Shown: positions 43,856 through 61,597, counted from the stretch's first letter. The stretch is DNA of 64,000 nt from an uncultured Clostridia bacterium (GCA_934457145.1 CAKSHP010000009.1:626-64625); one strand, 5' to 3'. Translations and numbers: made by a program. Notes: a model not told the origin generated them from the letters alone.

Positions 43856-44120
43856 TTTTTATCCTCTTTAAATAATAATCAAAAACATTTTATCACAATC
43901 AAAAGCGTTTTTCAACAAAAATTATTGCAAAGCGGCAAAATGAACGAAAAAAAACGTCTTACGGGAAAATTTTAATTATTATTTATTAAATAGGAAGAAA
44001 AAGAAAAAAATAAAAAAAATAAAAAATTTTTTTATTTTAATGCAACTTTTCGGGCTTTTAAAATGTATTATAAGTGAAAAGGGTAAAACACCTAAAAAAA
44101 TTCATAAAAGGAAAAGAGGA

Positions 44121-45686
44121 ATGAAAATGAAAAAAATTATTTCAATTGCTTTAACGGCAGCAATGGTATTTTCATCAATGGTATTTACTGCTTTTGCAGA
44201 AGATGAAGAAAACGGCGTTGTACCGATTTCGGCGCCTGTGGATTCTTCAAAACCTGTACCGATTTCAGCTCCGGTGGATTCTTCGGAAGCACCCGTGCAG
44301 AATATAGAAAAGGTTACATATAACGGCACTGTTGAAGAAGCCGGCGAAGGTTATATCACATTAAAGGAAGAAAAAATTCAGCTTAACTATGATGAAAGCA
44401 CTCTTGTTTGCGACTACGACTTTATGCCTTATGAGAGCATAAAGGCAGGCGACAGCGTAACGGTTGTTGCAGACACAGTTACAACAATGAGCATACCGGC
44501 TCAGTCTTATGCATACTACATTTTGGTTAACACCAAAAATTCTTCGGCAGCGCCGATATATGCAAAGGTTTTGTCAAATGACGGCAAAGAGATAATGTCT
44601 GCGGATAATCAGAACAAAATTATTATCTCAGACGAAACTCCCACATCTCACTACAGAGCAAAAATAAAAATAATGGCAAAAGATATTCCCGCGGGTTCTG
44701 AAATATTTGCATTTGCGACAACCGTAGGTCTTAGCATGCCGGCATATGTGCCCGCAGAGAAAATTGTTGTAATAAACATGGGAGAAGAAGCAAAAGAGCC
44801 TTCAGAAGGCGCAGAAAATATAACAATTTCAAAACCTGCTGATACCGACAGCGTTACATATAACGGCACTGTTGAAGAAGCCGGCGAAGGTTATATCACA
44901 TTAAAGGAAGAAAAAATTCAGCTTAACTATGATGAAAGCACTCTTGTTTGCGACTACGACTTTATGCCTTATGAGAGCATAAAGGCAGGCGACAGCGTAA
45001 CGGTTGTTGCAGACACGGTTACAACAATGAGCATACCGGCTCAGTCTTATGCATACTACATTTTGGTTAATACCAAAAATTCTTCGGCAGCGCCGATATA
45101 TGCAAAGGTTTTGTCAAATGACGGCAAAGAGATAATGTCTGCAGATAATCAGAACAAAATTATTATCTCAGACGATACCCCCACAGCTCATTACAGAGCA
45201 AAAATAAAAATAATGGCAAAAGATATTCCCGCGGGTTCTGAAATATTTGCTTTTGCAGAAACTGTAGGTCTTAGTATTCCGGCATATGTTGCACCCGAGA
45301 AAATCACGGTTGTAAACCTTGCCCAGGATACGGCTGCGGCAGATGTTGAAAAAATTATTGTTGACGATAAAACATATGAGGTATCGTTTAACTTTGAAAA
45401 AAAAGAAGAATTCGGCGAAAACCCAACTGCAAGATTTGCGTTAAGGCCGGTTTGCGAAGCTTTGGGCTATGATGTTTCCTGGGTTGGCGAAACGCAGAGC
45501 ATCGTTCTTTCAAAAGGCGGAAAAGACGTAAGCTTGGATATTGGCGTTGCAGTGCAGAAAATCGGCCACACACCGATGATTATTGACGGCAAAACATATG
45601 TTACACTTTCTTTGTTTAAAGTTTTATACGGAGATGAGGCAGAAGTTTCACTTAAAGACAACGCAGTAGTTGTTACAACAAAGTAA
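44121..45686 (+). CDS. Secreted protein with an internally duplicated 180-aa unit and a C-terminal Cu-amine-oxidase-N-like domain
   Basis: ATG 44121 is preferred (AAGAGGA RBS; signal peptide MKMKKIISIALTAAMVFSSMVFTAFA). The C-terminus RFALRPVCEALGYDVSWVGETQSIVL...IIDGKTYVTLSLF is stalk-like. Confidence 0.8.
   Translation: MKMKKIISIALTAAMVFSSMVFTAFAEDEENGVVPISAPVDSSKPVPISAPVDSSEAPVQNIEKVTYNGTVEEAGEGYITLKEEKIQLNYDESTLVCDYDFMPYESIKAGDSVTVVADTVTTMSIPAQSYAYYILVNTKNSSAAPIYAKVLSNDGKEIMSADNQNKIIISDETPTSHYRAKIKIMAKDIPAGSEIFAFATTVGLSMPAYVPAEKIVVINMGEEAKEPSEGAENITISKPADTDSVTYNGTVEEAGEGYITLKEEKIQLNYDESTLVCDYDFMPYESIKAGDSVTVVADTVTTMSIPAQSYAYYILVNTKNSSAAPIYAKVLSNDGKEIMSADNQNKIIISDDTPTAHYRAKIKIMAKDIPAGSEIFAFAETVGLSIPAYVAPEKITVVNLAQDTAAADVEKIIVDDKTYEVSFNFEKKEEFGENPTARFALRPVCEALGYDVSWVGETQSIVLSKGGKDVSLDIGVAVQKIGHTPMIIDGKTYVTLSLFKVLYGDEAEVSLKDNAVVVTTK
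44313..44780 (+). repeat. Intragenic tandem repeat, unit 1
   Basis: The offset to unit 2 is exactly 540 bp. Only 3 substitutions were seen by eye in the first roughly 330 bp, and divergence rises toward the 3' end. Confidence 0.9.
44853..45320 (+). repeat. Intragenic tandem repeat, unit 2
   Basis: See unit 1. Both encode VTYNGTVEEAGEGYITLKEEKIQLNYDESTLVCDYDFMPYESIKAGDSVTVVADTVTTMSIPAQSYAYYILVNTKNSSAAPIYAKVLSNDGKEIMSADNQNKIIISD... Confidence 0.9.
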
Positions 45687-45853: not shown

Positions 45854-47413
45854 ATGGATATAAAAAAAGAAACGATAACAGTCAGCGAAACTGTTATGAG
45901 AACAAATGAAAAAGTGCTTGTGAGTTCGGATATTATTGTGCCGGATGTGAAAAGCGATATTGCAAAGGTTCTGCGCCTTGATGCAGACGCAATTGTGGAA
46001 AGCTGCACCTACACCGGATCCCATATAGAAATTGACGGCAAAATATATCTCACAATTTTATATGTTCCGGAAAATAACGAAAATCAGCCCGTTTGCTCGA
46101 TAGTAACGGACATACCTTTTGAAACGCAGATAGAAGATTCGCGCCTTACGGAGGGAGTAAAGGCTGTTTGCAAGGCGGATGTTTATAATATAGAATTTAA
46201 TCTTTTAAACTCCAGAAAGCTTTGCGCAAAAACGCTGGTCGACTTAAATCTGCACGTGATAAGACTAAAACAGGAGGATTTTGTTGTTTCAATGGACGAT
46301 AGCTCCTTTGAAGTTTATGACGACAGTGCGAAAATTTTTTCTTTGATTGATTTTAAAAACACAAAATTCACAGCCGAGGAGGTTTTGGATTTTCCGAGCG
46401 GAAAACCGGGTGCGGTTTCGGTTTTAAAAACCGACGTTAGGCTCATGGATTATCAAACGCATATAATAACCGGCAAAATCATAGTAAAGGGCAGCGTTGA
46501 AAGCTGCTGCTTATATGTGGGCGACAACGGCAAAATAGAATTTGTGAACCACGAAATACCGTTTACGGAGGTGATTGACGCTTCGGGCGTTAATGAAAAC
46601 AGTATTTGCGATTTAACGCTCGGAGTGTGTGTATCGTCGGCAAGGCTTCGCGCCGATTCTGACGGAGATATGAGGCTTTTGGAGCTTGAGATGCTTTTTT
46701 CCGCCGAGGTTTTGGCATATGAGCAAAGCGAAATAAAATTAATATCCGATTGCTTTTCCGTAAGCGACAACGCAGTTTGCAAACAAAAGAAAATAAACCT
46801 TGAAAAACTTGTTTACAGCGAATGTTTAAGAAAAGACATAAAGGGCAGCATAGTGCTTGGCGAAAACATGCCCCCGGTTGAAACGGTTTACAATATTCTG
46901 GTTAAGCCGTATATCGAAAAAACAACCGTGTCGGACGGACAGATAAACATAGAGGGCAGCTGCGACTGTTATGCTTTGTATTTAAGCAGCAAGGAAAACA
47001 TGCCGATTTTCAGCGCAATGTCATCTGTGGAGTTTTCGCTTAGCGTTAATTCAAATCAGATAAACGAAAACTGCATATGTTCGGCTGCTGCAAAGGTTAA
47101 TTCATCCTCGTATAACATAACGCTTTCGGGAGAAATTGAGATAAGATGTGCGCTTGATGTGTGCGTGTCTGCAACGGATACATATGAAAAGGAATTTGTG
47201 AGCGAAATTGAGCCGGCGCAAGATGAGCCAAAAAACAAAAGACACGGGGTTTGCGTGTATTTTGTAAAAAAGGGCGACAGCCTTTGGAAGATAGCAAAGA
47301 AATATAAAGTTCCGCTCGGACTTCTGATAAAGTTAAACAAGCTTGAAAACCCGGATTTGATTTATCCCGGTCAGCCTGTTTTGGTGCCTATGCCGCAAAA
47401 GGCATGTAAGTAA
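45854..47413 (+). CDS. DUF3794-repeat protein with C-terminal LysM domain (SipL-like sporulation protein)
   Basis: ATG 45854 is preferred (MDIKKETITVSETV...). The C-terminal LysM reads YFVKKGDSLWKIAKKYKVPLGLLIKLNKLENPDLIYPGQPVLVP. This architecture matches clostridial SipL; the assignment rests on architecture only. Confidence 0.65.
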   Translation: MDIKKETITVSETVMRTNEKVLVSSDIIVPDVKSDIAKVLRLDADAIVESCTYTGSHIEIDGKIYLTILYVPENNENQPVCSIVTDIPFETQIEDSRLTEGVKAVCKADVYNIEFNLLNSRKLCAKTLVDLNLHVIRLKQEDFVVSMDDSSFEVYDDSAKIFSLIDFKNTKFTAEEVLDFPSGKPGAVSVLKTDVRLMDYQTHIITGKIIVKGSVESCCLYVGDNGKIEFVNHEIPFTEVIDASGVNENSICDLTLGVCVSSARLRADSDGDMRLLELEMLFSAEVLAYEQSEIKLISDCFSVSDNAVCKQKKINLEKLVYSECLRKDIKGSIVLGENMPPVETVYNILVKPYIEKTTVSDGQINIEGSCDCYALYLSSKENMPIFSAMSSVEFSLSVNSNQINENCICSAAAKVNSSSYNITLSGEIEIRCALDVCVSATDTYEKEFVSEIEPAQDEPKNKRHGVCVYFVKKGDSLWKIAKKYKVPLGLLIKLNKLENPDLIYPGQPVLVPMPQKACK

Positions 47414-47452: not shown

Positions 47453-47485
47453 GTGTATTTTTGAAAATGGTTTGCGATATATATT

Positions 47486-47564
47486 GTAGGGAAAGGGCTT
47501 GCTCTTTCCGTTTTTGCAATCAGTTTTTATCTGCGTTTGCGGCAGGACGGGGCCCCTGCCCTAC
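47486..47564. repeat. GC-rich structured intergenic repeat, copy A (diverged)
   Basis: GTAGGGAAAGGGCTTGCTCTTTCCG...GCGGCAGGACGGGGCCCCTGCCCTAC. It shares both ends and the internal hairpins with copies B and C. Flanking modules AAAATGGTTTGNNATATATA and TACCTATTCCCTCAAA are also shared with copy C. Confidence 0.8.
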
Positions 47565-47624
47565 AAGATTTTATTTAACTTTTTCACTATTCACTATTAC
47601 CTATTCCCTCAAATCGCCTCTGCC

Positions 47625-47966: not shown

Positions 47967-48132
47967 AAAATCCGTCCTTTCTTTGATTTTGGCATATTGC
48001 GGCCGTTTTTTTGATGCCTGTGGTAATATAATATGCAAAAGGAAAAAAATACGTGCTTAAAAAGTGTTGCAATTTTTTCGGTTTTGTTGTATAATCGGTT
48101 ATATAGATTAAGTAGTCAAAGAGGAAAACGTA

Positions 48133-50310
48133 ATGAAAACAAAAAAATATTTTAACAGAATATTTGGCGTTTGTGTGGCTTTGTGCGCTGCGTTTTCGCT
48201 TTTATTTTCGCTTACATATTACATTACTTCTGCAAAAAGAATTTATACGGATTTTTGCGCGGACAAACAAATTCAAACCGCAAACGAATCTGCCGCTTTG
48301 GAGCAGATTTTTAAAATGTGCGAAAAATCTGCGCAGTATTCAGCAAAAAATATCGATTATACGCCGGCCTCTTTTCAAAACGCGCTGCAAAGCGCACAGG
48401 ATTTTTTCGACTTCGGCAGCATATATGTCATGGACGAAAACAAAACGGTCTATAAAAAGGACGACAGCTTTTTTTTAGACGCGTCCGTGCGAGAAAAGCT
48501 TGCGGCAATGAAAACTGATTTTAAACTCTTTTCATTTTCGGAGGGCGGCAGAGAATATATAGCGATTGCAAACCGCATAAACACGGATGATAAAAATATA
48601 TATTTCCTGCGTGCGTCGGAAAAGGGCGAGTTTTTAAGAGCGGGCAAAATAAGTTCCGATTCGCTCGTGTTTTTAAATGACACAAATGCAATATATCTCG
48701 GCAGCGAAAAATATTTTGCGGATATGAAAAGTCATATAAACGAAAAGGGCGCCCAAAGCGTGTTTTCAAATATAATCGATGGAGAATACAAAGGAAAAGA
48801 CTGTGTGTACACAGCAGCGCAGAGCGAATATATTAAAAATGCCGGAGAGGTGTTTATTTATTCAACAGCGTCTGTTTCTTCAAAATATGCCGAGTTTGCG
48901 CTTATCTGCGTGGCGGTGTTTTTTATTGTTTTAATACTGCTGTCGCTTTTGTGCTTTGCGGCTGCAAAAATAGCGTATCACCCGATAGACGAACTAAACG
49001 CCCTCGCCGTCAGATACACAAACGAAAGCGATTCGGCAGACGAGGTTGCGCATATTTCGTCGGCGCTTAAGGCTATGGCAGAAAAGATAAATGTTTTAAA
49101 AGCCGACGCACAAAAAAAACAGCAGCTTTTAAGAGAACACTTTGTTAAAGACCTTCTTTCCGGCATTGTCGGCGAAGAATCGTATGCATCATATGCCGGG
49201 GAGTTTTTTATGACGGAATATGAAACGCCTTTTTATGCGGGCGTGTTTGAAATAGCGGATTATGAGTCTTTGTCGGAGGTATTTGGCGAAAGAAACCTTT
49301 TGCAGATAAAAAAACAGATTTGCTCGTTTATAGATAACGAGCTTATGGGCAGAAGCATACAAAGCGCCGTTGAAATTGATAAAAAACGCTTTGCCGTGGT
49401 AACGTACGGGTGCGATGTTTCAAGAATACATCAGAATTTTTCTTATATAGTGTCGGTGATTAACGGCGAGTTTGACGTTGAAATGATTGCGCTTATCGGA
49501 AGCCGCTGCGACAATCTGTTTTATATAAACGAAAGCTATGCAAACTGTGTTAAAGCTCTGGACGAGTCGGGCGTGCTCGGATTTTGCGGCACAGTTATTT
49601 CTTATGAAGATATTGAAACCAAAGCAAACTTTTACTATCCCGTAAATCTTGAGCGCGATCTGATAAGCAGCGTTATAAGATTAAAGCGCGGGGAAAGCAT
49701 GCGCATAATAAATAATATCTTAGATGAAAACCTGAACGGAAAAACGCTCACAAAAGAAAAACACAATGCAATTATATTTGCCTTTACCGCCACGATTAAC
49801 AGAATTGTTGAGGCAATTAACAAAACGGTCGACGAGGTGTACGGCAAGGACAATATAGTGTTTCTGGAGCTTAAAATGTGTGACGGTGCGCCGGCGCTGC
49901 GCGCAAAGGTGATACAGTGCTTTGACAAAATTTTAAACTATATGTCGGGCGATGAGGACGCGGATATGTCAAAAAGGCTTATGGACTATATACACTCTCA
50001 CTATAACGAAGACATTTCCCTAACCGAAATCGGAGCATATTTTAAACGCTCAAAGTGCTATATAAGCACGGTGTTTAAAGAAACAACCGGCGAAAACTTC
50101 AAAGACTATTTAAGCCGTTACCGCATAAAAAAGGCAAAGGAAATCCTTTTAAAAAACCCGAACATCAAAAACAAAGAGCTTGCCGCGATGATCGGCTGCA
50201 ACACGCCCGCAACGCTGTTTCGTTTGTTTAACAAATATGAAAATATGTCTCCGGGGCAGTTTGCAAAAAACGGCACCGACGGCAAAGACGGCTCTGAAAA
50301 ATCAAATTAG
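48133..50310 (+). CDS. Membrane-bound AraC-family regulator (two TM segments flanking an extracytoplasmic sensor domain, C-terminal HTH_AraC)
   Basis: 725 aa. TM1 FGVCVALCAAFSLLFSLTYYI and TM2 FALICVAVFFIVLILLSLLCFAA. The C-terminus reads ISLTEIGAYFKRSKCYISTVFKE...NKELAAMIGCNTPATLFRLFNK. Confidence 0.8.
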   Translation: MKTKKYFNRIFGVCVALCAAFSLLFSLTYYITSAKRIYTDFCADKQIQTANESAALEQIFKMCEKSAQYSAKNIDYTPASFQNALQSAQDFFDFGSIYVMDENKTVYKKDDSFFLDASVREKLAAMKTDFKLFSFSEGGREYIAIANRINTDDKNIYFLRASEKGEFLRAGKISSDSLVFLNDTNAIYLGSEKYFADMKSHINEKGAQSVFSNIIDGEYKGKDCVYTAAQSEYIKNAGEVFIYSTASVSSKYAEFALICVAVFFIVLILLSLLCFAAAKIAYHPIDELNALAVRYTNESDSADEVAHISSALKAMAEKINVLKADAQKKQQLLREHFVKDLLSGIVGEESYASYAGEFFMTEYETPFYAGVFEIADYESLSEVFGERNLLQIKKQICSFIDNELMGRSIQSAVEIDKKRFAVVTYGCDVSRIHQNFSYIVSVINGEFDVEMIALIGSRCDNLFYINESYANCVKALDESGVLGFCGTVISYEDIETKANFYYPVNLERDLISSVIRLKRGESMRIINNILDENLNGKTLTKEKHNAIIFAFTATINRIVEAINKTVDEVYGKDNIVFLELKMCDGAPALRAKVIQCFDKILNYMSGDEDADMSKRLMDYIHSHYNEDISLTEIGAYFKRSKCYISTVFKETTGENFKDYLSRYRIKKAKEILLKNPNIKNKELAAMIGCNTPATLFRLFNKYENMSPGQFAKNGTDGKDGSEKSN

Positions 50311-50695
50311 AGCGGGTGCGCCAAAACGGTTATTAGTCATTATAACCATAAAACGCAGTGCAATTTTGTTGAAAATTACAGAAAATATTTTTTAAAAATT
50401 AAAAATTTTAAAAAAACATAAAAAATATAATAAAATTACAAAAATTATAATTTACATAACGGCAAATATGTGTTATTATACTATATGTTAATATATGTGC
50501 AGTGTCTTTAGAAGAGGACGGTGCATGGTTTTTATAAAAATAAGGCCGTGTTTTGGGCAAATATCAATAAAGAAAATATGGTTTTATTTTTATTGTGTTA
50601 AGTATATTTTTTGCGAAGCGCAAGCCTTTTTGGCGGGCGCGAGCGATAATATAAAAAAATTTATTAAAATTTTTTGTAAACGAGGGGGAATCTTC

Positions 50696-53600
50696 ATGTT
50701 TAAGAAGTTTGTGTGTATAGCGCTTTCTTTGATGATGGTGCTTTGCACAGTTTCTGTAACCGGATTTGCAGCTTCCTATGAGAGCGGCGATTTGGTTGCT
50801 TCAAACGTAGTATTTTCAGATGCGGCAGACGCGTCGGGAAATAAAACGGTAACAGCGCAGATTAATGTTTCAAATAATTCTGCGTCGGAGAGCGGCAGCG
50901 CCGTTTTCTGGGTTGGTAAGTATGACGCAAACGGCGTTTTGGTTGACTCTGCAAAGCAGGACATAAGCCTTGCTGCAGGTGAAAACAAAGACGCAAGCGC
51001 AGCGGTAAGCCTTGCTTCGGATGAAACGGGCTACAGCATTAAAGCTTACATTTGGGAAAAGATGATAGGCGGTAAAGCTATAGCAACTGCTGCTACATAC
51101 AACAGCTCAAGCACGGAAATTCTCTATGCAATGGCAGGAGACGAAGCTTGGGAAGCGTTTGACGAAAACACTTCGGAATATGATATAGTTCTTGAAAGAA
51201 CTCAGTTTGATATTCCAGAGTACAAGCTTTTTGCAAAAGACAATGCAACAAAGGTTACAGAGCCTGCTGCATTTGTTTTGGGCGAAAACAAAATCACGGT
51301 AACTTCGGGCGACGGTTCGGCAACGAAAGAGTATAAATTAAATATCTCTTACAAGGCTCCCGAATTTGCAAACTTTAACTGTGCAGGTAAAGTATACGGA
51401 ACATATCCTGTTCAGAATATAGACGTTAAATTTGAAGATCTTGATACTATGCCGAGAGACATTCTTGAAGGTACAGACGGCTGGAATAAATATCCCGGAA
51501 AGGACGGAAGTGCGGTTAACTCGCCCGGTAAAATAACAACATATCTTGACTCACTTGGCTATAATGTCGGCGAATTGTTTGTGTTTAAAACAGACAAGGG
51601 TCCCGGAGATGCAGCAAATTATTATAAGGGCGGTATCGGCAAGTATGACGGTACAGCCGGCGGTTACTTTATGACCTTCGATATCGAAAAAGCAGGTACA
51701 ATGTATCTTTTGGATAAAGAAGGCAAAGGTATGCCGAATGCAACAAAAGAAGGTTATACAAAAGTTGCAGGCACAGACGCTTACAAAAAGCACTATGAAG
51801 CAGGCGAAACAGTAAAAGTTCCTTCCTACGGTTGGGATAACAGCTGGAAATCGGCCAATGACAGATATTTCTGGAACTCCACAATCTTTATGTTCGGTTA
51901 TGATGCAGGCTGGGAAATCCCGGACAAATTCGATACAACGGATGCAACACTTAAAGCTCTTAAGTACACAGCAGACGGAGCAGAATACGATGTTGACGGT
52001 TTTGATCCGGCAGACGCAGGCGAAAAAGTTTATGACGCAGTTCTTCCTTACGGCACAAAAGACGTAACGGTTGCGGCAACGAAAAACGAAGGTCATGCAA
52101 CAGTTTCAGTAGAGCCTGAAACAATCGCTTTGACAGACGGCAAAGCAACAGCAAAGGTAACAGTTGTATCTTTTGATAAAACAGTTACAAACACATACAC
52201 GATTAACTTCACAACAGACATTCCGGCAGACAACAATGCAGACTTGAAAGCTCTTGAATACAAATACGGCGACAGCGACTATGTATCGGTAGACTCCTTT
52301 GACGCAGCAACCGACACATACAGCGTAACTCTTCCCGAGAAGACAACAACAGCCGAAGTAAGAGCAACAGCATATGTTTTTGATAAAGCAACAGTTGAAA
52401 TAACTCAGCCGGTTATTGAAAACTATAAAGCAACTGCAACGGTTAAAGTAACTGCTGCGGATGGCACAACAGTAAAAACATACACAATTAACTTTACTGT
52501 TGAATTGGCTTTTGAAGAAAGACCTAACAAGATTTATAACTTAACAGCTAAGGAATCTTATAAAACAGATAACCACGGTTATCAGACAGACGACGAGGCT
52601 GTTGGACAGGCGGGCAAGATCGTAATCGGCGAAAATCTGTCAACCTCTTCTCTGAGATATTACGACAGAACAACAACATATCCGAAAACATCCGATGATA
52701 TGGTTGGCGCTTCGTATATCCGTTTGATGAGAAACTATCATGGTATGTATGATGTTGCAACAAGCGGTACGTTTAAGAGAAACGGCGTTGAAATGACAAG
52801 CTACAACGGTGCACCTACCGGTAACTTCAGAAAATTCAAATATGATACGGCAGCGTTCTATTCCGATGAATACACAGGTATAGGCGATGCAGACGGTTGG
52901 GTTGAGTTTAATGTAACAAGCGACTGTACTGTAGTTTTGGGCGACGTTGGTAACTTCGGATATCCGAATGCAAACCTTGCAGGCTGGACAAAAGCTGTTG
53001 ACACAACTAAAAACTATCTCGGCTACGCATCTTATTATAAAACGTTTAACGCAGGCGACAGAGTTAAAATCCCGAGCTATGGTAAATCTTCAGGAAAGCT
53101 TGCCGATAAAACACCTGTAGTTTATGAGTATACAGACAAAAACGGCAATGCTCAGGTTTTCACAACAACAGCCGGATATGATTCAGCTCACTGGGATGCT
53201 ATCACGGTAGCAATAAAGTGGGGCAAAGAAGTTTCAAAAAATGCTAACCTTTCTTCAATCAAGGTTGACGGCGCAGAAGTTGAAGGCTTTGCAGCAGACA
53301 AGACTGACTACACAGTTATGGTTGACAAATCAAAAACAAGTGTTAGCCTTGAGGCTGTTGCAGCAGACTCAAAAGCAACTGTTGACTGCCCTGCAACAAT
53401 AAACGTTGGCAGCAGCGCAACTATCACAGTAACAGCAGAAGATAAAACAACGGTTAAAACTTATAAAGTAACGGTTAAAGCAAAAGAGCCAAACAATGCA
53501 ATGCTTTCATCTTTGAAGTATGCAATAGGCTCTGCGGCTCCCGTTGATGTTGAAGGCTTTGACGCATCGGTTGAAGGCGGTTCGTACACGGTAGCAGCAT

Positions 53601-55852
53601 TTGAATATTCAAAAACTCCTATCGTTATAACCTTAAGCGGTACAACAGTTGACGAAGAAGCAACAATTTCAACAACTCCGGTAACTCTTTCGGCTCCCGG
53701 AAAGGTTGAAGCAGTTTTAAGCGTAACAAGTGCAGACGCTACTGTTACAAAAGAATATAAAGTAACATTTGAAATGCTTGCAAAGGTAGCAAGCGCAGTT
53801 GTTGTCGGTACAGATGAATATCAGGCGCTCCTTAATGACGGTAAGTATGACGGAAAGTACAGAATTATTTTGGCAGATCCGGTTTCTTATACAGACGGTC
53901 AGAAAAGTCTTATGTTGACATGGGACGAAAACGGTCTTGCAAAGAACAGACTTTATGAAATCAGCGTTGACGGAACTGTTTACACTGAAACGCAGGCAGG
54001 CAAGGTGGTTAATCTCTTTAAGCTTTCAAAAGCTAAAGAGGTTAAGGCTGCTAAAGAGGCAGAAGGCAAAACAGTTACATTAACTGCAAAAGATTATAAC
54101 TATGAAGAATCAAAGGTTGTTGCTTCAAGAGGTTCTGCATTTAACCTTGCAGGAATTCATAACTTCGGTGCAGCGGGCGCAAAGATTAAAACGGCAATGC
54201 AGATTATGACAAGCCGCGAGGTAGCGCCCGGAAGAATCGGCGCTTCATACACTTCGGAATATAAAAATCCGACAGATGCAAGAAATTGGCTTGCAACAGA
54301 CGGCAACTATTTGTTTACTGTTACACCGAACACAAAGGCTACTGTTTATGTAACAATGGCACACACAAATGCGAAAGACGCTAAAACATATAAAGCAGAC
54401 GGTTGGACATTTTTGGATTACTCTGCAGAGTTTACAAGAGATAAACTTAATGCACTTCCTGAGGAAGCAATTATTGAAACATACAGAAATCTTCCCACAG
54501 GTATAGCAAGACAGTGGTTTATGGTTGAGCCTTCGTTCACATATCCGAACGCTCCGTTCTCACTTACAAAGATACAGTATGATGTAGGCTCTGACACAGT
54601 TTGCGCAAACTATCCTTATGTTTGGTATAAAACAGTTGAAGAAGACGAAACATTAAAGGTTCCGACAATCGGAAGTATTTCGCCTAACGGTGATCAGGCT
54701 CCGCTGAAAGCATTTGTATTGTATGAAGAGCATGACTTGAGCTTAAATCCCGCAAGCGGAGATGCAACATTAAAATCAATCACAATCGGCGGCACAGCGC
54801 TTGAAGGTTTTGCAGCAGATAAAACTGATTACACTGTAGACCTTCCCTATGGAAGCACAATTCCGGAAGTTGAAGCTGCGGCAAATGATGCAGGCGCAAG
54901 CGTTGCTAAAAATGCAGACGGCAATGTTGTAAAAATTACGGTAACTGCTAAAAACGGTACTGTTAAAACATACACAATTACGTTTAACATTAAAGCAGCT
55001 AAAACAGATGCAACATTAAAATCAATTTCAGTTGGCGGCGCAGCACTTGAAGGCTTTGCAGCAGATAAAATTGATTACACAGTAGAGCGTGCATACGGTG
55101 ACAGTGTTGTTCCCGAGGTTACATATGAAGTAAACGACGCAGACGCAACGGCAGTTAAAAATGTTGCAGGCGATGTGGTTACTATCAAGGTAACAGCTCA
55201 GGACGGTGCAACCAAAAAGACATACACAATCACGTTTACAAATAAAGCGCCCAAAACAGATGCAACATTAAAATCAATTTCGGTAAACGAAACACCGATT
55301 GCAGATTTTGCAGCAGGTACGCTTAATTACACAGTTAAGCTCCCCTACGGCAGCGAAACCAAAATCGAATATGAAGCAAACGATGCAGACGCAACAGCAG
55401 TTGTAAACGATTTGGGATCAAATGTATTTGAAATTGTAGTAACAGCTCAGGATGGCAAAACAAAACTGACATATAAAATAACATTGGATATTGAATCCGC
55501 AGTAAGCTCAGACGCTACGCTTAAGTCTTTAATCGTTGGCGGCACACCTATCACCTTAGAGGACGCTAAGTTTGAATATGAGTGCACATTGATTGACGGA
55601 TTTGTAAAAGTAGTAGCTGTTGCAAACCATGCCGGCGCAACTGTTACAATCGCAGACGCTGATAATAACGTAACAGATAAGTTCTACGGCGGAACAGCTG
55701 TAATAACAGTAAAAGCAGCTGACAACACAACAACAAACATCTATAAAGTAATCTTCAAGAGCGGTACTCCCGGCGGAATTGAAGACGGCGGCGAAACAGG
55801 CGACGGACTTATCACCGATATAACCGGCAGCGAAGACGGCGGAGATGTTTAA
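50696..55852 (+). CDS. Giant secreted surface protein: Ig-like N-terminal domain, about 9 cadherin-like beta-sandwich modules, 3 copies of an unassigned module, acidic Gly/Asp tail
   Basis: ATG 50696 is preferred (GAGGGGGA RBS; signal peptide MFKKFVCIALSLMMVLCTVSVTGFAAS). Repeated segments of the form DATLKSISVGGAALEGFAADKIDYTV...VTAQDGATKKTYTITF match the Cadherin-like (PF12733-type) pattern. Confidence 0.85.
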   Translation: MFKKFVCIALSLMMVLCTVSVTGFAASYESGDLVASNVVFSDAADASGNKTVTAQINVSNNSASESGSAVFWVGKYDANGVLVDSAKQDISLAAGENKDASAAVSLASDETGYSIKAYIWEKMIGGKAIATAATYNSSSTEILYAMAGDEAWEAFDENTSEYDIVLERTQFDIPEYKLFAKDNATKVTEPAAFVLGENKITVTSGDGSATKEYKLNISYKAPEFANFNCAGKVYGTYPVQNIDVKFEDLDTMPRDILEGTDGWNKYPGKDGSAVNSPGKITTYLDSLGYNVGELFVFKTDKGPGDAANYYKGGIGKYDGTAGGYFMTFDIEKAGTMYLLDKEGKGMPNATKEGYTKVAGTDAYKKHYEAGETVKVPSYGWDNSWKSANDRYFWNSTIFMFGYDAGWEIPDKFDTTDATLKALKYTADGAEYDVDGFDPADAGEKVYDAVLPYGTKDVTVAATKNEGHATVSVEPETIALTDGKATAKVTVVSFDKTVTNTYTINFTTDIPADNNADLKALEYKYGDSDYVSVDSFDAATDTYSVTLPEKTTTAEVRATAYVFDKATVEITQPVIENYKATATVKVTAADGTTVKTYTINFTVELAFEERPNKIYNLTAKESYKTDNHGYQTDDEAVGQAGKIVIGENLSTSSLRYYDRTTTYPKTSDDMVGASYIRLMRNYHGMYDVATSGTFKRNGVEMTSYNGAPTGNFRKFKYDTAAFYSDEYTGIGDADGWVEFNVTSDCTVVLGDVGNFGYPNANLAGWTKAVDTTKNYLGYASYYKTFNAGDRVKIPSYGKSSGKLADKTPVVYEYTDKNGNAQVFTTTAGYDSAHWDAITVAIKWGKEVSKNANLSSIKVDGAEVEGFAADKTDYTVMVDKSKTSVSLEAVAADSKATVDCPATINVGSSATITVTAEDKTTVKTYKVTVKAKEPNNAMLSSLKYAIGSAAPVDVEGFDASVEGGSYTVAAFEYSKTPIVITLSGTTVDEEATISTTPVTLSAPGKVEAVLSVTSADATVTKEYKVTFEMLAKVASAVVVGTDEYQALLNDGKYDGKYRIILADPVSYTDGQKSLMLTWDENGLAKNRLYEISVDGTVYTETQAGKVVNLFKLSKAKEVKAAKEAEGKTVTLTAKDYNYEESKVVASRGSAFNLAGIHNFGAAGAKIKTAMQIMTSREVAPGRIGASYTSEYKNPTDARNWLATDGNYLFTVTPNTKATVYVTMAHTNAKDAKTYKADGWTFLDYSAEFTRDKLNALPEEAIIETYRNLPTGIARQWFMVEPSFTYPNAPFSLTKIQYDVGSDTVCANYPYVWYKTVEEDETLKVPTIGSISPNGDQAPLKAFVLYEEHDLSLNPASGDATLKSITIGGTALEGFAADKTDYTVDLPYGSTIPEVEAAANDAGASVAKNADGNVVKITVTAKNGTVKTYTITFNIKAAKTDATLKSISVGGAALEGFAADKIDYTVERAYGDSVVPEVTYEVNDADATAVKNVAGDVVTIKVTAQDGATKKTYTITFTNKAPKTDATLKSISVNETPIADFAAGTLNYTVKLPYGSETKIEYEANDADATAVVNDLGSNVFEIVVTAQDGKTKLTYKITLDIESAVSSDATLKSLIVGGTPITLEDAKFEYECTLIDGFVKVVAVANHAGATVTIADADNNVTDKFYGGTAVITVKAADNTTTNIYKVIFKSGTPGGIEDGGETGDGLITDITGSEDGGDV

Positions 55853-55957
55853 TAACCGTTAAACAATCGGATATAATAACATGAAAATTTATATGCCCTG
55901 CAAGCCGGGAAAGCAAAAATGCTTTTCCGGCGGGAAAGGGAGAGGAGGAATAGACAA

Positions 55958-57682
55958 ATGAAACATACTAAGTTTTGTAAGCTTCTTTCGGTTGTGTTGA
56001 CAGTTGTGATGGTAATGTTAAGTTCTGTAAGCGTATTTGCAGGCTCAACATTGACCGCTTCGCAGGATATCGCAACCACAGAGGTAAATTTAACATACAC
56101 CGGAACTGCTGAAGGTATCAACCCGGTAGGTCTTGCAGTTGTTATGATCGGACCTGCAACGGAGGATGCTGAAGGTAATTTGGTTTTTGATGAAACAAAA
56201 GACATTATAAGCGGTATGCAGGTGTTCGTTGATGAAAACGGCAGCTACACAGGCAAGTTTGTATTGTCATCAGACACAGATGCAGACGGCAATTCTGTTG
56301 TAAAGGCAGGTTATTACAAAATCGTTGCTTCTTCAAATGATGAAGTTGTTGACACTGTAATTTACTTTGCTGCTCCTTCCGACAGAAAAGGCGCTCTTAA
56401 GAGAATTTTGGAAGCTACAGACGATGCAACTGTTGTAAGCATAATTGATTCTTCGGCAGATATGCTCGGTATTGATGAAGATATCTGGGATCTTCTTCCC
56501 GATACAAAAGCTAAAGAAAAAGCTGCAAAAGCAATCAGAGCCAATGCAGTTATGAAAACTATCGACAAAGACAACATCAAAGATTCAGATGTTGCCAAAG
56601 CAGCAGATCAGATTAATAAAGAAGCTTTAACAGCAATATTAAATTCTGATAAAGGTCTTGTAAGCGATCTTAACGATTATAAAGACGTTATAGACAACAC
56701 AGACGCTATGACTCTTTATGACGGTTTGAAAGACGCTAAAAAGGAAATGATTAAGCTTATTTCCGGCAAAAACTATGAAAACTATGAAGCTTTGGACAAA
56801 GACCTTGGCGACATGGCAAGACTTGCTTATATCAATGCAGACGGCGGCGATATAGAAACAGTTTCAAAGTATGCAAAAAATCTTGGTCTTGACAAAGCAG
56901 ACGATTTTGATAAAATTGCTTCATCTCGTTTGAAGAAAGAAGCTATTGACGCAGTTAAGGCTGCAAAAGCAACAACAATTGAAGATCTTAACAAAGCATT
57001 CACAAAGGCTGTAAACGCAAGATTGACAGGCGGCAGCAGCGGCGGTGTTGCTGACAGAGATAACAGCGGCAGCGGAAGTGGCAGCGGTAACACAACAATA
57101 ATTAAGTCCGATACTGTAAAGCCTGATGACAGCAAGGCTCTTGATTATATTGATATTGATAACTATCCCTGGGCAAAAGATTCTATCAACGAACTCACAA
57201 AGCTTAACGTTTTGACAGGTTACGGCGATGGCTTGTTCGGACCTGCAAACCTGATTAAGAGAGAAGAGTTTGCAAAGGTTATAGTTGCTGCTATGTATGG
57301 TGAAGAAGCAGACAAGGCAAATGTGGTTCCCGCATTTGTTGATGCTCAGAACGCTTGGTATTCTTCATATGTAGGCTACGGCGCACAGATCGGAATTATT
57401 TCCGGCTACAGCGCAGACACATTCGGTGTTGGTCAGAATATTAAACGTCAGGATATTATGGCAATCCTATATCGTATAATGGTAGCAAAGGGATACGCTG
57501 TAAACACAACTCCTATAGCTTATTCTGATGCAGCAGACATTTATGATTATGCAAAAGACGCTGTTTACGCTCTTGCAAATGCAGGCGTTGTAAGCGGTTA
57601 TAACGGAGCAATCAATCCTAACGGTGAAGCAACAAGAGCAGAAGTTGCAGTTATGGTTGCTAACTTTATAAAATTATTCTAA
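55958..57682 (+). CDS. S-layer-homology (SLH) domain cell-wall-anchored protein
   Basis: ATG 55958 (GAGAGGAGGA RBS, signal peptide). Three C-terminal SLH repeats: DNYPWAKDSINELTKLNVLTGYGDGLFGP, AWYSSYVGYGAQIGIISGYSADTFG and YAKDAVYALANAGVVSGYNGAINPNGEATRAE. Confidence 0.85.
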   Translation: MKHTKFCKLLSVVLTVVMVMLSSVSVFAGSTLTASQDIATTEVNLTYTGTAEGINPVGLAVVMIGPATEDAEGNLVFDETKDIISGMQVFVDENGSYTGKFVLSSDTDADGNSVVKAGYYKIVASSNDEVVDTVIYFAAPSDRKGALKRILEATDDATVVSIIDSSADMLGIDEDIWDLLPDTKAKEKAAKAIRANAVMKTIDKDNIKDSDVAKAADQINKEALTAILNSDKGLVSDLNDYKDVIDNTDAMTLYDGLKDAKKEMIKLISGKNYENYEALDKDLGDMARLAYINADGGDIETVSKYAKNLGLDKADDFDKIASSRLKKEAIDAVKAAKATTIEDLNKAFTKAVNARLTGGSSGGVADRDNSGSGSGSGNTTIIKSDTVKPDDSKALDYIDIDNYPWAKDSINELTKLNVLTGYGDGLFGPANLIKREEFAKVIVAAMYGEEADKANVVPAFVDAQNAWYSSYVGYGAQIGIISGYSADTFGVGQNIKRQDIMAILYRIMVAKGYAVNTTPIAYSDAADIYDYAKDAVYALANAGVVSGYNGAINPNGEATRAEVAVMVANFIKLF

Positions 57683-57822
57683 AATAATTCAGTCTCAATA
57701 AATCCTTATAAAAGAAGGGCTGTCGGACATTGATCCGGCAGCCTTTTGCATTTGTGCTGGCAAATATTTTTTATTATAATTCCTCTTTTTTATGTTACTT
57801 ACCCTCCCTTGCATCGGACGTT

Positions 57823-57904
57823 GTAGGGAAAGGGCTTGCTTTTTCCGTTTTGTTTTCAGTCAAATTTTATCTAAACCCGCGGCAGGGCGGGGCCCCTGCC
57901 CTAC
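57823..57904. repeat. GC-rich structured intergenic repeat, copy B
   Basis: 82 bp, identical to copy C. The outer inverted ends GTAGGG/CCCTAC enclose the hairpins GGAAAG..CTTTTTCC and GGCAGGG-CGGGGC-CCCTGCC. Confidence 0.85.
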
Positions 57905-58010
57905 AGGGTTTGACGTGGTTTTCACTGTACATTTTTCCTGCTTTTTTAAATATATTTAAAAAAATGGTTTGAAATATATAAAAGGGAAAATAAAATTTAC
58001 GGTTGGTTTT

Positions 58011-58092
58011 GTAGGGAAAGGGCTTGCTTTTTCCGTTTTGTTTTCAGTCAAATTTTATCTAAACCCGCGGCAGGGCGGGGCCCCTGCCCTAC
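58011..58092. repeat. GC-rich structured intergenic repeat, copy C
   Basis: Identical to copy B and located 188 bp downstream of it. Confidence 0.85.
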
Positions 58093-58164
58093 AGGGATTT
58101 ACCTATTCCCTCAAAAAAATACGCCGCATACAAAAACTGCGGCGCATTTTTCTTTATTAAAAAC

Positions 58165-59475
58165 TTATTTTAAAAACAGTTCAATAACGGGAACAACAAC
58201 GTTTGGCTTAACTTCGGGGAGCGTTATAACCAAAAGACCGGCATTTTCCGAGGCAGACTCGCTGAAGTGTTCAACCTTGCCTTCGGTGTATAAAAGTTCG
58301 CTTCCGTCATGCAAAAACTGTGCATAGTCAACTTTTCCGGCAAAACCGTCAAGCTCTAAGAACTTATAAGGATAGTCGAAAAGATGAATGTAAAGGCGCG
58401 AACCATCCTCCGATTGAGTAAGTCGGCAACCATTCGGCGCTTTAAACTCCGGCTCTGCCATCGTGCAGCCATAGATTGAACGTGAGTTATATTTCATCCA
58501 GTCGCCGTAAACCTTTAGTGCGTTTTCGGCGCGGTAGTCAAAATATCCTCTTGAAGTTGGGCCAACGTTCATTAAAAGGTTACCACCGCAGGAAACGGTG
58601 TTTACAAGCATCTGAATAAGCATTTCGGGCGATTTCCATGTCATTTCATCTCTGTAGTAACCCCATGAACCGGAAAACGTCTGGCAAGCCTCCCATGTGA
58701 CAAGCTCGCCGGTTTCCTTGTGTTTAACCCAGCTTAACGGCTGATACTGTTCAGGCGTCCACAAATCCTGTTCAATTTCGGTGCGGTTATCGATTATAAT
58801 ATGCGGCTGAAGAGAGCGTGCGGTTTTAATAAGCTCCTCTGCCTCCCAGTCATCCTTGCCTTTTCCCTGCATCCAGTCCGGAAAATCGGGATTTTTTTTG
58901 TATGAAAAGTCAAACCACAAAATGTCGATTTTGCCATAGTTGGTTAAAAGCTCGGTCACCTGGTTTCTCATATACTCGGCATATTTGTGCATATCTCTGC
59001 CTTCGTTTAACTCCTGTGCGTTTGGCTCATTTTTTCTTGGGTGAATATGGTCAATCGTAAAATCCGGATGGTGCCAGTCGAGCAGCGAATAATAAAAGCC
59101 TATGTGCAGTCCTTCGCTGCGAAAAGCGTCGACATATTCGCGGACAAGGTCGCGGCCGGCTTTTGTGTTGGTGCATTTGTAGTCGGTGTATTTTGAATCG
59201 AACATACAAAAGCCCTCGTGGTGTTTGGTTGTTAAGACAACATATTTCATGCCGGCGTCTTTTGCCTGTCTTGCCCACTCTTTCGGATCATACATATCGG
59301 GATCAAAATACTTAAAATACTTATCGTATTTTTCCTCGGAAATGGCCTCTCTTGTTTTAACCCATTCGTGACGCGCAGGCATGGAATAAAGTCCCCAGTG
59401 GATAAACATGCCGAAACGGTCATGCGTAAACCATGAGGTGTCGCCCGGAGTTTTTCTTGTTACATAGCTTGACAT
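58165..59475 (-). CDS. Alpha-L-fucosidase, glycoside hydrolase family 29
   Basis: DRFGMFIHWGLYS, YVVLTTKHHEGFCMFDS and GKIDILWFD are GH29 signatures. ATG 59475 is preferred (AAAGGA RBS). Confidence 0.85.
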   Translation of the reverse strand: MSSYVTRKTPGDTSWFTHDRFGMFIHWGLYSMPARHEWVKTREAISEEKYDKYFKYFDPDMYDPKEWARQAKDAGMKYVVLTTKHHEGFCMFDSKYTDYKCTNTKAGRDLVREYVDAFRSEGLHIGFYYSLLDWHHPDFTIDHIHPRKNEPNAQELNEGRDMHKYAEYMRNQVTELLTNYGKIDILWFDFSYKKNPDFPDWMQGKGKDDWEAEELIKTARSLQPHIIIDNRTEIEQDLWTPEQYQPLSWVKHKETGELVTWEACQTFSGSWGYYRDEMTWKSPEMLIQMLVNTVSCGGNLLMNVGPTSRGYFDYRAENALKVYGDWMKYNSRSIYGCTMAEPEFKAPNGCRLTQSEDGSRLYIHLFDYPYKFLELDGFAGKVDYAQFLHDGSELLYTEGKVEHFSESASENAGLLVITLPEVKPNVVVPVIELFLK

Positions 59476-60752: not shown

Positions 60753-61382
60753 ATGTTTTGGGAAATTTTTGACGACTTATGCAAACAAAATGGAATATCA
60801 GCAACCGCTGTTTGCAAAAAACTTTCAATTGCTTCCGGAATGGTTACAGAATGGAAGAAAGGGCGAACGCCGTATAATGCAACATTAAAAAAAATAGCAG
60901 ATTATTTCAACGTTTCGGTTGATTATCTGCTCGGCAAAGAAGAAAAAGCAGACATTGCGGCAGCACTATTAAAGCAATACGGACTAATGCCTATAAAACA
61001 TAAAAAATTCCGTATGCTTGGTGAAACAGCTTGTGGCGAACCGATATTTTGCGATGAGGAATACGATACCTTTGTCGACGCGAGTGCCAATATAGATGCA
61101 GATTTTTGTTTAAAAGCAAAGGGAGACAGCATGGTAAATGCCCGCATATATGATGGTGATATCGTGTTTATCAAACAAACGACTATGGTTAATAACGGTG
61201 AAATTGCTGCCGTAATTGTTGGTGATGAAGCAATGTTAAGAAGAGTTTATTATAACGAAGATAACACGTTTGTTTTATCTGCTGAAAATCCGCAATATGA
61301 GCCCCTTGTTTATACAAAGGAGGAACTTAACAATATAAATATTCTTGGTCGTGCAGTTGCTTTTATGAGTCATGTAAAATAA
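60753..61382 (+). CDS. XRE-family HTH / S24 peptidase repressor (CI/HdiR/LexA-like)
   Basis: The N-terminal HTH_3 reads ISATAVCKKLSIASGMVTEWKKGRTPYNATLKKIADYFNVSVDYLLG. The C-terminal S24 fold carries GDSM. Confidence 0.8.
   Translation: MFWEIFDDLCKQNGISATAVCKKLSIASGMVTEWKKGRTPYNATLKKIADYFNVSVDYLLGKEEKADIAAALLKQYGLMPIKHKKFRMLGETACGEPIFCDEEYDTFVDASANIDADFCLKAKGDSMVNARIYDGDIVFIKQTTMVNNGEIAAVIVGDEAMLRRVYYNEDNTFVLSAENPQYEPLVYTKEELNNINILGRAVAFMSHVK

Positions 61383-61520: not shown

Positions 61521-61597
<77 letters not shown>

Follow-up and report, generated by a model that had tools for sequence, protein, structure and literature searches.

We analyzed a 64,000-nt window of DNA from an uncultured Clostridia bacterium and examined a surface-protein cassette within it (Table 1). 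The initial annotation had described three co-oriented genes forming a compact unit: a membrane AraC sensor, an anchorless giant protein with a signal peptide and an acidic Gly/Asp ending, and a partner with three C-terminal SLH repeats behind an N-terminal beta-rich and helical region. We confirmed all three ORFs and found that their order recurs across lineages. The descriptions of the giant, its ending, and the partner also held, as detailed below.

Table 1. Features of the cassette, numbered from the first nucleotide of the window
Feature	Position	Strand	Remarks
Small divergent ORF, 113 aa	47625..47966	-	Homologs at the same position and orientation
Promoter-like TTGCAA-17-TATAAT upstream of the AraC gene	48067..48095	+	Consensus scan only
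Membrane AraC/XylS-type one-component regulator, 725 aa	48133..50310	+	HTH_18, hydrophobic segments
Conserved upstream box TTTTGTTGAAAATTACAGAAAA	50364..50385	+	Candidate regulator-binding site
Giant-gene promoter TTTACA, 17 nt, extended -10 TGTG-TTATTAT	50451..50479	+	Scan match
Giant secreted protein, 1718 aa	50696..55852	+	ATG behind RBS GAGGGGG
Acidic Gly/Asp tail GTPGGIEDGGETGDGLITDITGSEDGGDV, residues 1691-1718	55766..55849	+	Two IEDGG-type motifs
Intercistronic stem-loop	55896..55940	+	Inner 12-bp stem 55904-55931, outer CCCU/AGGG helix
SLH partner, 574 aa	55958..57682	+	Three SLH repeats, E 1.9e-28 (Pfam PF00395)
Terminator-like hairpin and T-run past the partner	57826..57856	+	8-bp stem, tail GTTTTGTTTT

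The giant protein, its SLH partner, and their pairing

The giant consists of a signal peptide (residues 1 to 26), a CARDB-like domain (29 to 125), nine cadherin-like repeats (counted by iterative HMM), three copies of an unclassified beta-rich domain of ~200 to 240 aa that we call the A domain (226 to 412, 606 to 845, and 1131 to 1345), and an unassigned region (1027 to 1130). Pfam identified it as cadherin-like, with PF12733 as its sole match (E = 1.4e-31), and NCBIfam found nothing in it. The only hydrophobic segment is N-terminal (residues 1 to 28), and we found no SLH, LPXTG, CWB, or transmembrane anchor by Pfam, NCBIfam, or hydrophobicity. The C-terminus is acidic and glycine-rich, with no hydrophobic stretch or LPXTG there, and thus does not resemble that of a sortase substrate. 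All giants share the signal-peptide motif MFKK[FY]xC. The A domain was modeled at a pLDDT of 75, and no PDB entry matched it in fold (E<1e-3) or in sequence. It is rare, occurring in just 32 representative proteins among 1.84 billion. An unrelated A-domain protein, P0051, bears a dockerin.

The partner carries a signal peptide (residues 1 to 28), an Ig-like beta-sandwich (29 to 138), an all-alpha region (139 to 359), a Gly/Ser linker (360 to 396), and three SLH repeats (397 to 574), the last of which contains a TRAE motif (GEATRAEVAVMV). These three tandem stretches mark it as an SLH-anchored wall protein. Three SLH repeats form a pseudo-trimer that binds pyruvylated secondary cell-wall polymer. 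Pfam had no match to the N-terminal domain. The AF2 model agreed with the layout, placing strands at model residues 3 to 109 and helices at 112 to 331 with pLDDT values of >90, and the Ig-like domain modeled as complete by itself. Foldseek returned no cohesin among the top 50 matches to the partner; the best were generic Ig/FnIII folds at E >= 4e-3, namely, BslA, a GH3 C-terminal domain, and CD160.

A check for co-occurrence of the giant and partner genes in other genomes had been proposed in the initial annotation, and we found the pair in every lineage examined (at least 10). Full-length partner homologs lie downstream of every giant, and the homology between partners spans their whole length (32% identity, E = 4e-65). 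The order AraC, giant, SLH partner occurs in L003, L004, L010, L011, L019, and L020. The order probably also holds in L005, where the pair follows a 765-aa gene with no Pfam record, and the pair stands alone in L006 plus L008, L018, and L021. Giants range from 1151 to 4010 aa across lineages, and the non-SLH half of the partner occurs only beside giants. All of the lineages come from one poorly sampled clade labeled "Clostridia bacterium," so part of the co-occurrence is explained by shared ancestry.

Upstream lies a small divergent ORF with an N-terminal transmembrane helix and a stretch similar to the initial ~60 positions of a family 2 glycosyltransferase (Pfam Glycos_transf_2, E = 1.4e-4, slightly under the gathering score). 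Homologs of 103 to 117 aa hold the same place and orientation in L003, L004, L010, L011, and L019. Given these homologs, we count this gene, which encodes a predicted membrane protein, as a fourth conserved member of the cassette. Genes outside the cassette vary between lineages. The adjacent GH29 fucosidase gene had been taken as a hint of host-glycan or mucin targeting, but only the window's own species has it beside the cassette; in other lineages, that position is taken by SecA, an Flg_new protein, RecR, an MFS transporter, or shikimate kinase. We found no peptidase, transpeptidase, or sortase gene within or beside the cassette in any lineage.

The acidic tail and a natural fusion

The giant ends in GGIEDGGETGDGLITDITGSEDGGDV. 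We found a (G)IEDGG-type motif at the extreme C-terminus of all giant orthologs and of the distant family members P0037-39, P0043-45, and P0057. This tail, which occurs once per locus, is the sole C-terminal feature common to the giants, whereas the last folded domain varies between clades. We infer that it is a candidate attachment element and the best candidate for contact with the partner. The docking proposed in the initial annotation did not yield an interface: in an AF2 monomer model of the giant's last 34 residues on the partner's N-terminal half, with no alignment depth for the tail and the SLH region left out, the tail was disordered (pLDDT, ~30). The tail and every partner domain are acidic (pI 4.0 to 4.9), and because all parts are acidic, simple charge attraction between them is unlikely, barring bridging cations.

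We also found the two proteins naturally joined. In P0049 (1883 aa), the signal peptide and N-terminal domains are those of the giant (33% identity, E = 2e-20), and A domains are present as well. The junction reads SGGGIEDTGEVPA and is followed by the whole mature partner (partner residues 28 to 574, E = 1e-39), so that an IEDxGE motif sits exactly where giant meets partner. A second fusion member, P0064, comes from a separate assembly, and the fusion locus and the split locus L020 have the same downstream genes. Pfam had no GAIN or GPS match in the giant, the partner, or P0049; the microbial MAIN profile lay outside the libraries used. The fusion is strong indirect evidence that giant and partner function together as a single surface structure whose SLH part lies nearest the wall. 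It shows a functional link, from which binding of the split products does not necessarily follow.

The constant pairing taken together with the fusion suggests that the partner holds the giant at the cell surface. We assign a probability of roughly 55% to the whole explanation, in which the cassette is a conserved four-gene surface-display unit of uncultured spore-forming Clostridia from one narrow clade and the giant is tethered by its partner. The giant may instead be a released or freely binding exoprotein and the SLH protein an independent, coregulated wall component, with splitting of a fused ancestor, or fusion in one lineage, having switched the giant between anchored and released states. 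The lack of a predicted tail interface and the acidity of all parts fit such an arrangement, and the dichotomy is plausible given the argument that shedding large ectodomains from their wall-anchored stubs is biologically useful (10.64898/2026.05.12.724683). We nevertheless consider it unlikely. The IEDGG tail stays C-terminal in at least 10 split lineages despite remodeling of the giant, the partner's non-SLH half is exclusive to neighbors of giants, and products that never meet would not readily account for the tight, invariant pairing, spacer length, and hairpin.

Regulator, promoters, and intercistronic stem-loop

The AraC protein has two hydrophobic segments (6 to 33 and 247 to 285), giving a predicted layout of TM1 (6 to 33), an extracytoplasmic domain (34 to 250), TM2 (251 to 285), a cytoplasmic middle part (286 to 610), and an HTH region (611 to 715). 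HTH_18 matched residues 637 to 712 above the Pfam gathering score (E = 9.6e-12), which identifies an AraC/XylS double HTH; NCBIfam TIGR04094 matched weakly, over the HTH only, with scores far under the family cutoffs. Its cytoplasmic part is 42% identical to that of the L011 ortholog (E = 7e-129), whereas the extracytoplasmic parts could not be aligned, and no known family matched the extracytoplasmic domain. This outer domain diverges along with the giant. Among the orthologs, a central GGDEF_2 domain passed the cutoff in L010 (E = 1e-5) and L011 (E = 4e-7); no such match passed in the L003 ortholog or the window regulator.

AraC regulators adjoining large surface-protein genes are a known pattern, as for YSIRK surface antigens (TIGR04094), and Bacillus subtilis YesS has two transmembrane helices around an extracytoplasmic domain. 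YesS is an AraC/XylS activator of ~750 aa (PMC2788870), and the cassette regulator appears to resemble it in its C-terminal double HTH and central regulatory domain (GGDEF_2 in orthologs). Paralogs without a cassette also exist, including a full-length one in L013. To call this membrane AraC protein unusual, as had been done, thus overstated the case: it is probably of the general YesS type. Going by conserved adjacency alone, it is probably the cassette's regulator.

Between the regulator and giant genes, the box TTTTGTTGAAAATTACAGAAAA is kept with no more than one mismatch in L003, L004, and L005. By eye, distant loci show degenerate look-alikes of it. The giant-gene promoter precedes a leader of ~210 nt, and its -35 element, spacing, and TGTGnTAT(T/A)AT also occur in L004, L005, L010, L011, L019, and L020. 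All clades keep this promoter, as well as the sequence context of the giant gene's RBS and start codon. Most likely, the giant and partner genes are cotranscribed from this conserved sigma-A-type extended -10 promoter. The hairpin past the partner gene, which belongs to a ~95-nt repeat, probably marks where the giant-partner transcript ends.

The initial annotation had placed a stable hairpin without a U-tract between the giant and partner genes at about 55899-55925 and had judged it compatible with cotranscription. We found that hairpin ~5 nt away; the inner hairpin reads GCCGGGAAAGCA-AAAA-TGCTTTTCCGGC. For the 105-nt spacer, the predicted folding energy is -31 kcal/mol (z = -4.4 versus shuffles). 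A stem-loop occupies this position in 11 loci, among which there are nine different stem sequences and three to five pair types per position, and a covariance model derived from sequences of the window clade recovered the L010, L011, and L021 sites. In the window, a single nucleotide separates the end of the stem-loop from the partner's GGAGG-rich RBS. The distance from that end to the SD is 1 to 6 nt in the eight loci that allowed this measurement, and the distance to the start codon is 17 to 23 nt in 9 of 10 measured loci; in L003 and L010, the longest predicted helix reaches into the SD. In all 10 loci analyzed, the 10 nt after the stem contain 0 to 2 U, which is not the pattern of an intrinsic terminator. 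Rfam 15 had no match at the hairpin or the giant-gene leader and gave sub-threshold noise elsewhere. The compensatory changes, together with the constant lack of a U-tract, are consistent with cotranscription and fit some posttranscriptional role.

A strong stem-loop (-21 to -31 kcal/mol) could also be a plain terminator of the giant gene, with no operon and the partner expressed as a separate unit from its own promoter, for which promoter-like TTAATA-17-TATAAT at 55849-55877, between the giant's stop codon and the hairpin, offers a candidate. The scarcity of U after the stem makes this improbable. In addition, the stem ends so close to the SD that there is no room for a promoter downstream of it, and by eye, the promoter-like hexamers are not kept in distant clades. 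Even if true, plain termination would leave the conserved giant-partner pairing intact.

Proposed mechanism and comparison with known systems

In the mechanism that we propose, the AraC regulator would sense an extracellular cue through its fast-evolving extracytoplasmic domain, and giant and partner would be transcribed together from the extended -10 promoter. The U-less stem-loop would probably set the relative amounts of giant and partner through mRNA stability, processing, or partial termination. Both proteins, given their signal peptides, would be exported by Sec. The SLH trimer, by its established function, would bind the partner to the wall polymer, and the partner's Ig-like and helical domains would provide a stalk or adaptor. 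This adaptor may hold the giant by its C-terminus, with the acidic IEDGG tail making the contact, which would leave the giant's conserved N-terminal domains and its variable set of cadherin-like and A domains to face outward as an adhesive or glycan-binding fiber.

More tentatively, the IEDGG tail and the partner's Ig-plus-helical module could be an unrecognized attachment pair, either dockerin-cohesin-like or covalent but sortase independent, with the AraC protein and the stem-loop setting expression and stoichiometry and the split and fused forms being variants of one device. That the tail is instead a sorting or processing signal, through which a sortase-like enzyme with a new motif joins the giant to the partner or wall, would suit a short conserved motif at the very C-terminus with a small residue set at its end, the lack of predicted docking, and the motif's place at the would-be covalent link in the fusion, but this is very improbable, since no peptidase, transpeptidase, or sortase gene accompanies the cassette, the tail contains neither a hydrophobic nor a charged retention segment, and the sole extra conserved gene encodes the GT2-fragment-like membrane protein.

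If an anchorless giant does need a dedicated SLH adaptor, the tethered-giant reading would add a new attachment module to the Gram-positive display routes, which comprise sortase/LPXTG, SLH, CWB2, LysM, GW, and cohesin-dockerin systems. If the attachment-pair reading is also true, the IEDGG tail could act as a portable display tag. The candidate element, a C-terminal IEDGG, is short and testable, and the fused relative beside split forms offers a natural control. The cassette also brings together uncharacterized parts: a rare beta-rich domain, a conserved intercistronic RNA, and a membrane AraC sensor. Its hosts are uncultured Clostridia known from metagenomes only, and what their cells adhere to probably depends in large part on this cassette.

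Among known systems, Clostridioides difficile SlpA likewise pairs a wall-binding and an outward subunit (HMW and LMW) in a noncovalent surface complex. In contrast to the cassette, SlpA is one precursor cut by Cwp84, has a CWB2 rather than an SLH anchor, and is unrelated in size and domains. MAIN/GAIN proteins display giant cadherin- or Ig-like ectodomains on a wall-anchored stub (LPXTG or SLH), and their two polypeptides, which arise by autoproteolysis inside a GAIN-like fold, stay associated and releasable (10.64898/2026.05.12.724683). The cassette differs in that its pieces come from two genes, each with its own signal peptide, and we detected no GAIN/GPS. In the cellulosome, the SLH-bearing scaffoldins SdbA, OlpB, and Orf2p hold CipA through type II cohesin-dockerin binding (PMC12484212, PMC5817068). 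As there, the cassette combines a large anchorless multidomain secreted protein with a separate anchor carrying three C-terminal SLH repeats, the genes are clustered, and the client's C-terminal end would meet the N-terminal part of the anchor. Unlike the cellulosome, the giant has no dockerin (no Dockerin_1, PF00404, at E<=0.01) and the partner no cohesin, and each anchor would have one client, without attached enzymes. For contact, the candidate is an acidic tail of 26 aa, compared with a Ca-binding module of ~70 aa in the cellulosome. On balance, we regard the cassette as a new version of two-component SLH-mediated surface display, one with neither cohesin nor dockerin.

Gene content and recurrence of the cassette

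We found the three ORFs that the initial annotation had described, together with a small divergent membrane ORF (113 aa, minus strand) upstream of them. We refer to these four genes as the cassette. The claim that the giant has no anchor held up in an HMM check, in which one family alone matched, and an NCBIfam search of the giant gave no match. Self-comparison and iterative HMMs divided the giant, behind its signal peptide, into one CARDB-like domain, nine cadherin-like repeats, and three copies of a domain we named 'A', plus an unassigned segment of ~100 aa and an acidic tail of 26 to 28 aa.

Features of the window and of compared loci (L004, L009, L013), with coordinates in the window unless a locus is named
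Feature	Coordinates	Strand	Length	Description
Secreted protein	44040-45686	+	548 aa	internal ~190-aa duplication
SipL/LysM sporulation gene	45854-47413
Intergenic repeat	47485-47575; 57821-57914; 58009-58102	+	~95 nt	two internal hairpins (TTGTAGGGAAAGGGCTTGCTTTTTCCG...GGCAGGGCGGGGCCCCTGCCCTACAGGG)
Membrane AraC regulator	48133-50310		725 aa	hydrophobic segments 6-33 and 247-285; C-terminal AraC-type HTH
AraC extracytoplasmic domain	48232-48882			residues 34-250
Upstream box	50364-50385
Giant promoter	50451-50479			TTTACA-17-TGTGnTATTAT
Giant	50696-55852		1718 aa	single N-terminal hydrophobic segment; sole family match cadherin-like PF12733
Intercistronic hairpin	55904-55931			GCCGGGAAAGCA/AAAA/TGCTTTTCCGGC
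SLH partner	55958-57682		574 aa	three SLH repeats
GcvB-like Rfam match	58113-58290	-		sub-threshold
LexA-like repressor	60753-61382	+		HTH_3 and Peptidase_S24
tRNA-Pro(CGG)	61521-61597	-
Second-subfamily 'A'-domain gene	L004, 12166-16638
Protein 3' of a fused giant-partner gene	L009, 5937-9041		1034 aa	signal peptide
Membrane AraC paralog	L013, 9014-11296		760 aa

The check proposed earlier, co-occurrence of the pair in other genomes, showed that giant and partner recur across lineages. Two metagenome contigs carry an identical giant among the same neighbours. Where giant orthologs are 53% and 41% identical, the order small ORF (minus strand), membrane AraC gene, giant gene, and SLH partner gene is retained. 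In a fifth lineage, the two genes are split between two contigs of a single MAG, and the contig ends overlap. At one locus (L005), only giant and partner were confirmed, as the contig starts within a 765-aa upstream ORF without a Pfam record. Searching with the 'A' domain exposed a wider family of giants (1855 to 4010 aa) whose members are alike in their MFKK[FY]xC signal peptide and in their tail. Each giant examined in this family is preceded by an AraC protein of ~750 aa and followed by a protein of ~580 to 600 aa, which is a full-length partner homolog (32% identity, E 4e-65); on the L018 contig, only the beginning of the downstream gene is visible. A 117-aa ORF homologous to the small ORF of the window is present in L010, L011, and L019. 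In a reverse search from a partner homolog (P0065), the product of the upstream gene ended in ...VEEGGVEDGGE*. When genomes were scanned with the profile of the partner N terminus, only 2 MAGs matched.

The gene 3' of the cassette varies among close lineages (fucosidase, SecA, or Flg_new protein), and the flanking genes vary by clade (SipL, sigma factor, heparinase, RecR, MFS transporter, and shikimate kinase). Because these genes differ between clades, the conserved entity is the cassette and not its neighbourhood, which places the fucosidase outside it. The suggestion that the GH29 fucosidase pointed to host glycans did not hold, as this gene adjoins the cassette only in the window's own species. 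The cassette is real, conserved, and beyond a chance gene neighbourhood. Its taxonomic range is narrow.

The 'A' domain spans ~200 to 240 aa, with SDCxVV, IPxYG, and Trp positions invariant (alignment A3), and was modeled as a beta-rich fold (pLDDT 75). A PDB fold search gave no match at E<1e-3, and a PDB sequence profile search returned nothing. The top Foldseek hit was a GH2 accessory domain (E 0.02, TM 0.40), followed by lectin-like noise; we did not accept a function from fold and made no assignment. An exhaustive HMMER search of 1.84 billion proteins found the domain in only 32 representatives, nearly all of them very large secreted proteins that also bear cadherin-like or Flg_new_2 repeats. 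We also observed a second 'A'-domain subfamily (P0036, P0040-42, P0047, P0050, P0055, and P0011-13; ~1300 to 1800 aa) with Flg_new/Flg_new_2 repeats. Its members lack the IEDGG-type tail and have instead a conserved C-terminal segment, ...GQYTVRKxNV..G.TW.A.AY.IY.D......YS..V..., which may serve as another kind of attachment or sorting module. In L004, a gene of this subfamily lies directly 3' of the SLH partner gene.

Several other features lie near the locus. One copy of a ~95-nt intergenic repeat lies just 5' of the cassette and two tandem copies lie just 3' (chance expectation, zero matches), so that direct repeats bracket the cassette. In L001 and L002, which are of the same species, the copies are found at corresponding positions; the loci of other lineages lack them. 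The repeat may represent a REP- or MITE-like element, or else act as a terminator module. Immediately 3' of the second downstream copy, before the fucosidase gene, is a match to Rfam GcvB that is most likely noise (25.5 bits, below the gathering score of 42; E 0.025). The 548-aa secreted protein has nearly identical duplicated halves and a C-terminal copper-amine-oxidase-N1-like domain, and its gene adjoins the SipL/LysM sporulation gene, which indicates that the host is a spore-former. The LexA-like repressor and tRNA-Pro(CGG) genes, 3' of the locus, have no apparent connection to the cassette.

The natural fusion and the proposed attachment of the giant

We found a natural fusion of giant and partner, P0049 (1883 aa). 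At its N terminus, residues 1 to 221 match the signal peptide and N-terminal domains of the giants (33% identity, 236 alignment columns, E 2e-20), and the protein also carries 'A' domains. It then reads ...SGGGIEDTGEVPAKTASSVELAADA and runs on through the mature partner in full, which matches over its residues 28 (directly behind its signal peptide) to 574 (E 1e-39). The IEDGG motif sits exactly at the join. A second member of the fusion cluster comes from a different assembly, and the downstream genes of the fusion locus (shikimate kinase, AraC, and GalK) are the same as those of a split locus (L020). By the classical Rosetta-stone argument, this suggests that giant and partner function as a single structure whose SLH end sits at the wall. 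At L009, directly 3' of a fused giant-partner gene, we observed a gene for a protein whose SLH-like region is N-terminal (residues ~43 to 192), not C-terminal.

All giants end in (G)[IVTA][ED][DE]GG plus 1 to 5 more residues, and the motif is often duplicated. This tail motif, found once per locus, is the sole C-terminal feature common to the giants; as last folded domain, the window clade has a cadherin-like one and the other clades an A-like one. For the partner, the results agreed with the earlier description of a beta-rich N terminus, a helical region, and SLH repeats: in the AF2 model, an Ig-like sandwich is followed by an all-alpha domain (pLDDT >90) and a Gly/Ser linker, and the SLH repeats matched in the HMM check. 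Foldseek returned only generic Ig/FnIII folds for the N-terminal domain, and a PDB profile search with the partner returned nothing. The non-SLH half is extremely rare: word-indexed searches of 5.8 billion proteins placed it in only 4 to 6 clusters.

The initial annotation had proposed that the partner tethers the giant. The conserved pairing and the fusion favor this model; docking of the tail on the partner does not. When the tail was appended to the partner N-terminal half in AF2, a shallow test that gives a weak negative, the domains were modeled well and the tail was disordered (pLDDT ~30). The partner domains are all acidic; thus, no interface is predicted. The disordered tail and the acidic domains would suit a giant that is released as an exoprotein, with the wall protein merely co-regulated. 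We consider release a doubtful alternative.

Intercistronic hairpin, promoter, and membrane regulator

The hairpin noted earlier between the giant and partner genes is present and has no U-tract (spacer z = -4.4 versus shuffles). We found a stem-loop of 15 to 22 bp (-21 to -31 kcal/mol) in 11 loci. Its gap to the partner ribosome-binding site (SD) was measurable in 8 of 10 loci, and in these it ends 1 to 6 nt before the SD. In 9 of 10 loci it ends 17 to 23 nt before the partner start codon. For L003 and L010, the longest helix predicted reaches into the SD region. Nine different stem sequences occur, and each position shows 3 to 5 canonical pair types. A covariance model of the window clade found the correct site in L010, L011, and L021, was marginal in L018, and missed L019 and L020. 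Neither the hairpin nor the giant-gene leader matched an Rfam family. Masking of the SD by the hairpin 5' flank (CCCU/ACCUU) was not adopted, since the flank pairs with the SD in some loci only. A strong stem between two genes could also be a plain terminator; with 0 to 2 U residues in the 10 nt after the stem, we regard this as improbable. The giant promoter and the RBS/start context are conserved across all clades, and the upstream box is conserved in the close clade.

The cytoplasmic parts of the AraC regulator are 42% identical between the window and the L011 ortholog (E 7e-129), and the extracytoplasmic domains are not alignable between these clades. This outer domain diverges together with the domain composition of the giant, a hint that its stimulus might have to do with the giant or the giant's ligand. 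A metagenome scan with the AraC profile returned mostly short soluble paralogs (386 aa in L012 and L014; a truncated one of 337 aa on L015, a 2-kb contig) and a frameshifted copy in L016. A full-length membrane paralog (34% identical) from a JGI metagenome, L013, is followed by neither a giant nor a partner gene. These paralogs without the cassette indicate that the regulator family is broader than the cassette. Like YesS (PMC2788870), the window regulator is of the long type.

A proposed two-polypeptide surface structure and known systems

The best-supported reading, to which we give a probability of about 0.55, is a two-polypeptide surface structure to which the giant is attached by its C-terminal end. 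The SLH partner would serve as wall anchor and adaptor, and the giant, held by that end, would point outward. A single conserved promoter would drive both genes, which are separated by a structured RNA element, putatively under the control of a cassette-specific membrane AraC sensor. Of this picture, the genes and their conservation, the fusion, the missing anchor, and the conserved RNA structure are observed; binding, the parts played by tail and hairpin, and control by AraC are inferred. An enzyme-mediated covalent link would also give the shared tail a role, and the fusion holds the two parts in one chain at that motif; we consider such a link very unlikely.

We found no description of the giant-partner pair or of the IEDGG tail in the literature. 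The cassette would represent SLH-mediated two-component surface display. It brings together a putative new motif for attachment, a new domain that is rare, and an RNA element conserved among the loci. Cellulosome anchoring likewise combines an SLH scaffoldin with an anchorless scaffoldin, but the cassette fails the cohesin and dockerin tests: with no Pfam matches and no cohesin-like fold, we rejected a cohesin-dockerin reading. MAIN/GAIN surface proteins (10.64898/2026.05.12.724683) likewise place an ectodomain on a wall-anchored stub; unlike them, the giant-partner pair is encoded by two genes, and the Pfam search detected no GAIN domain in it.
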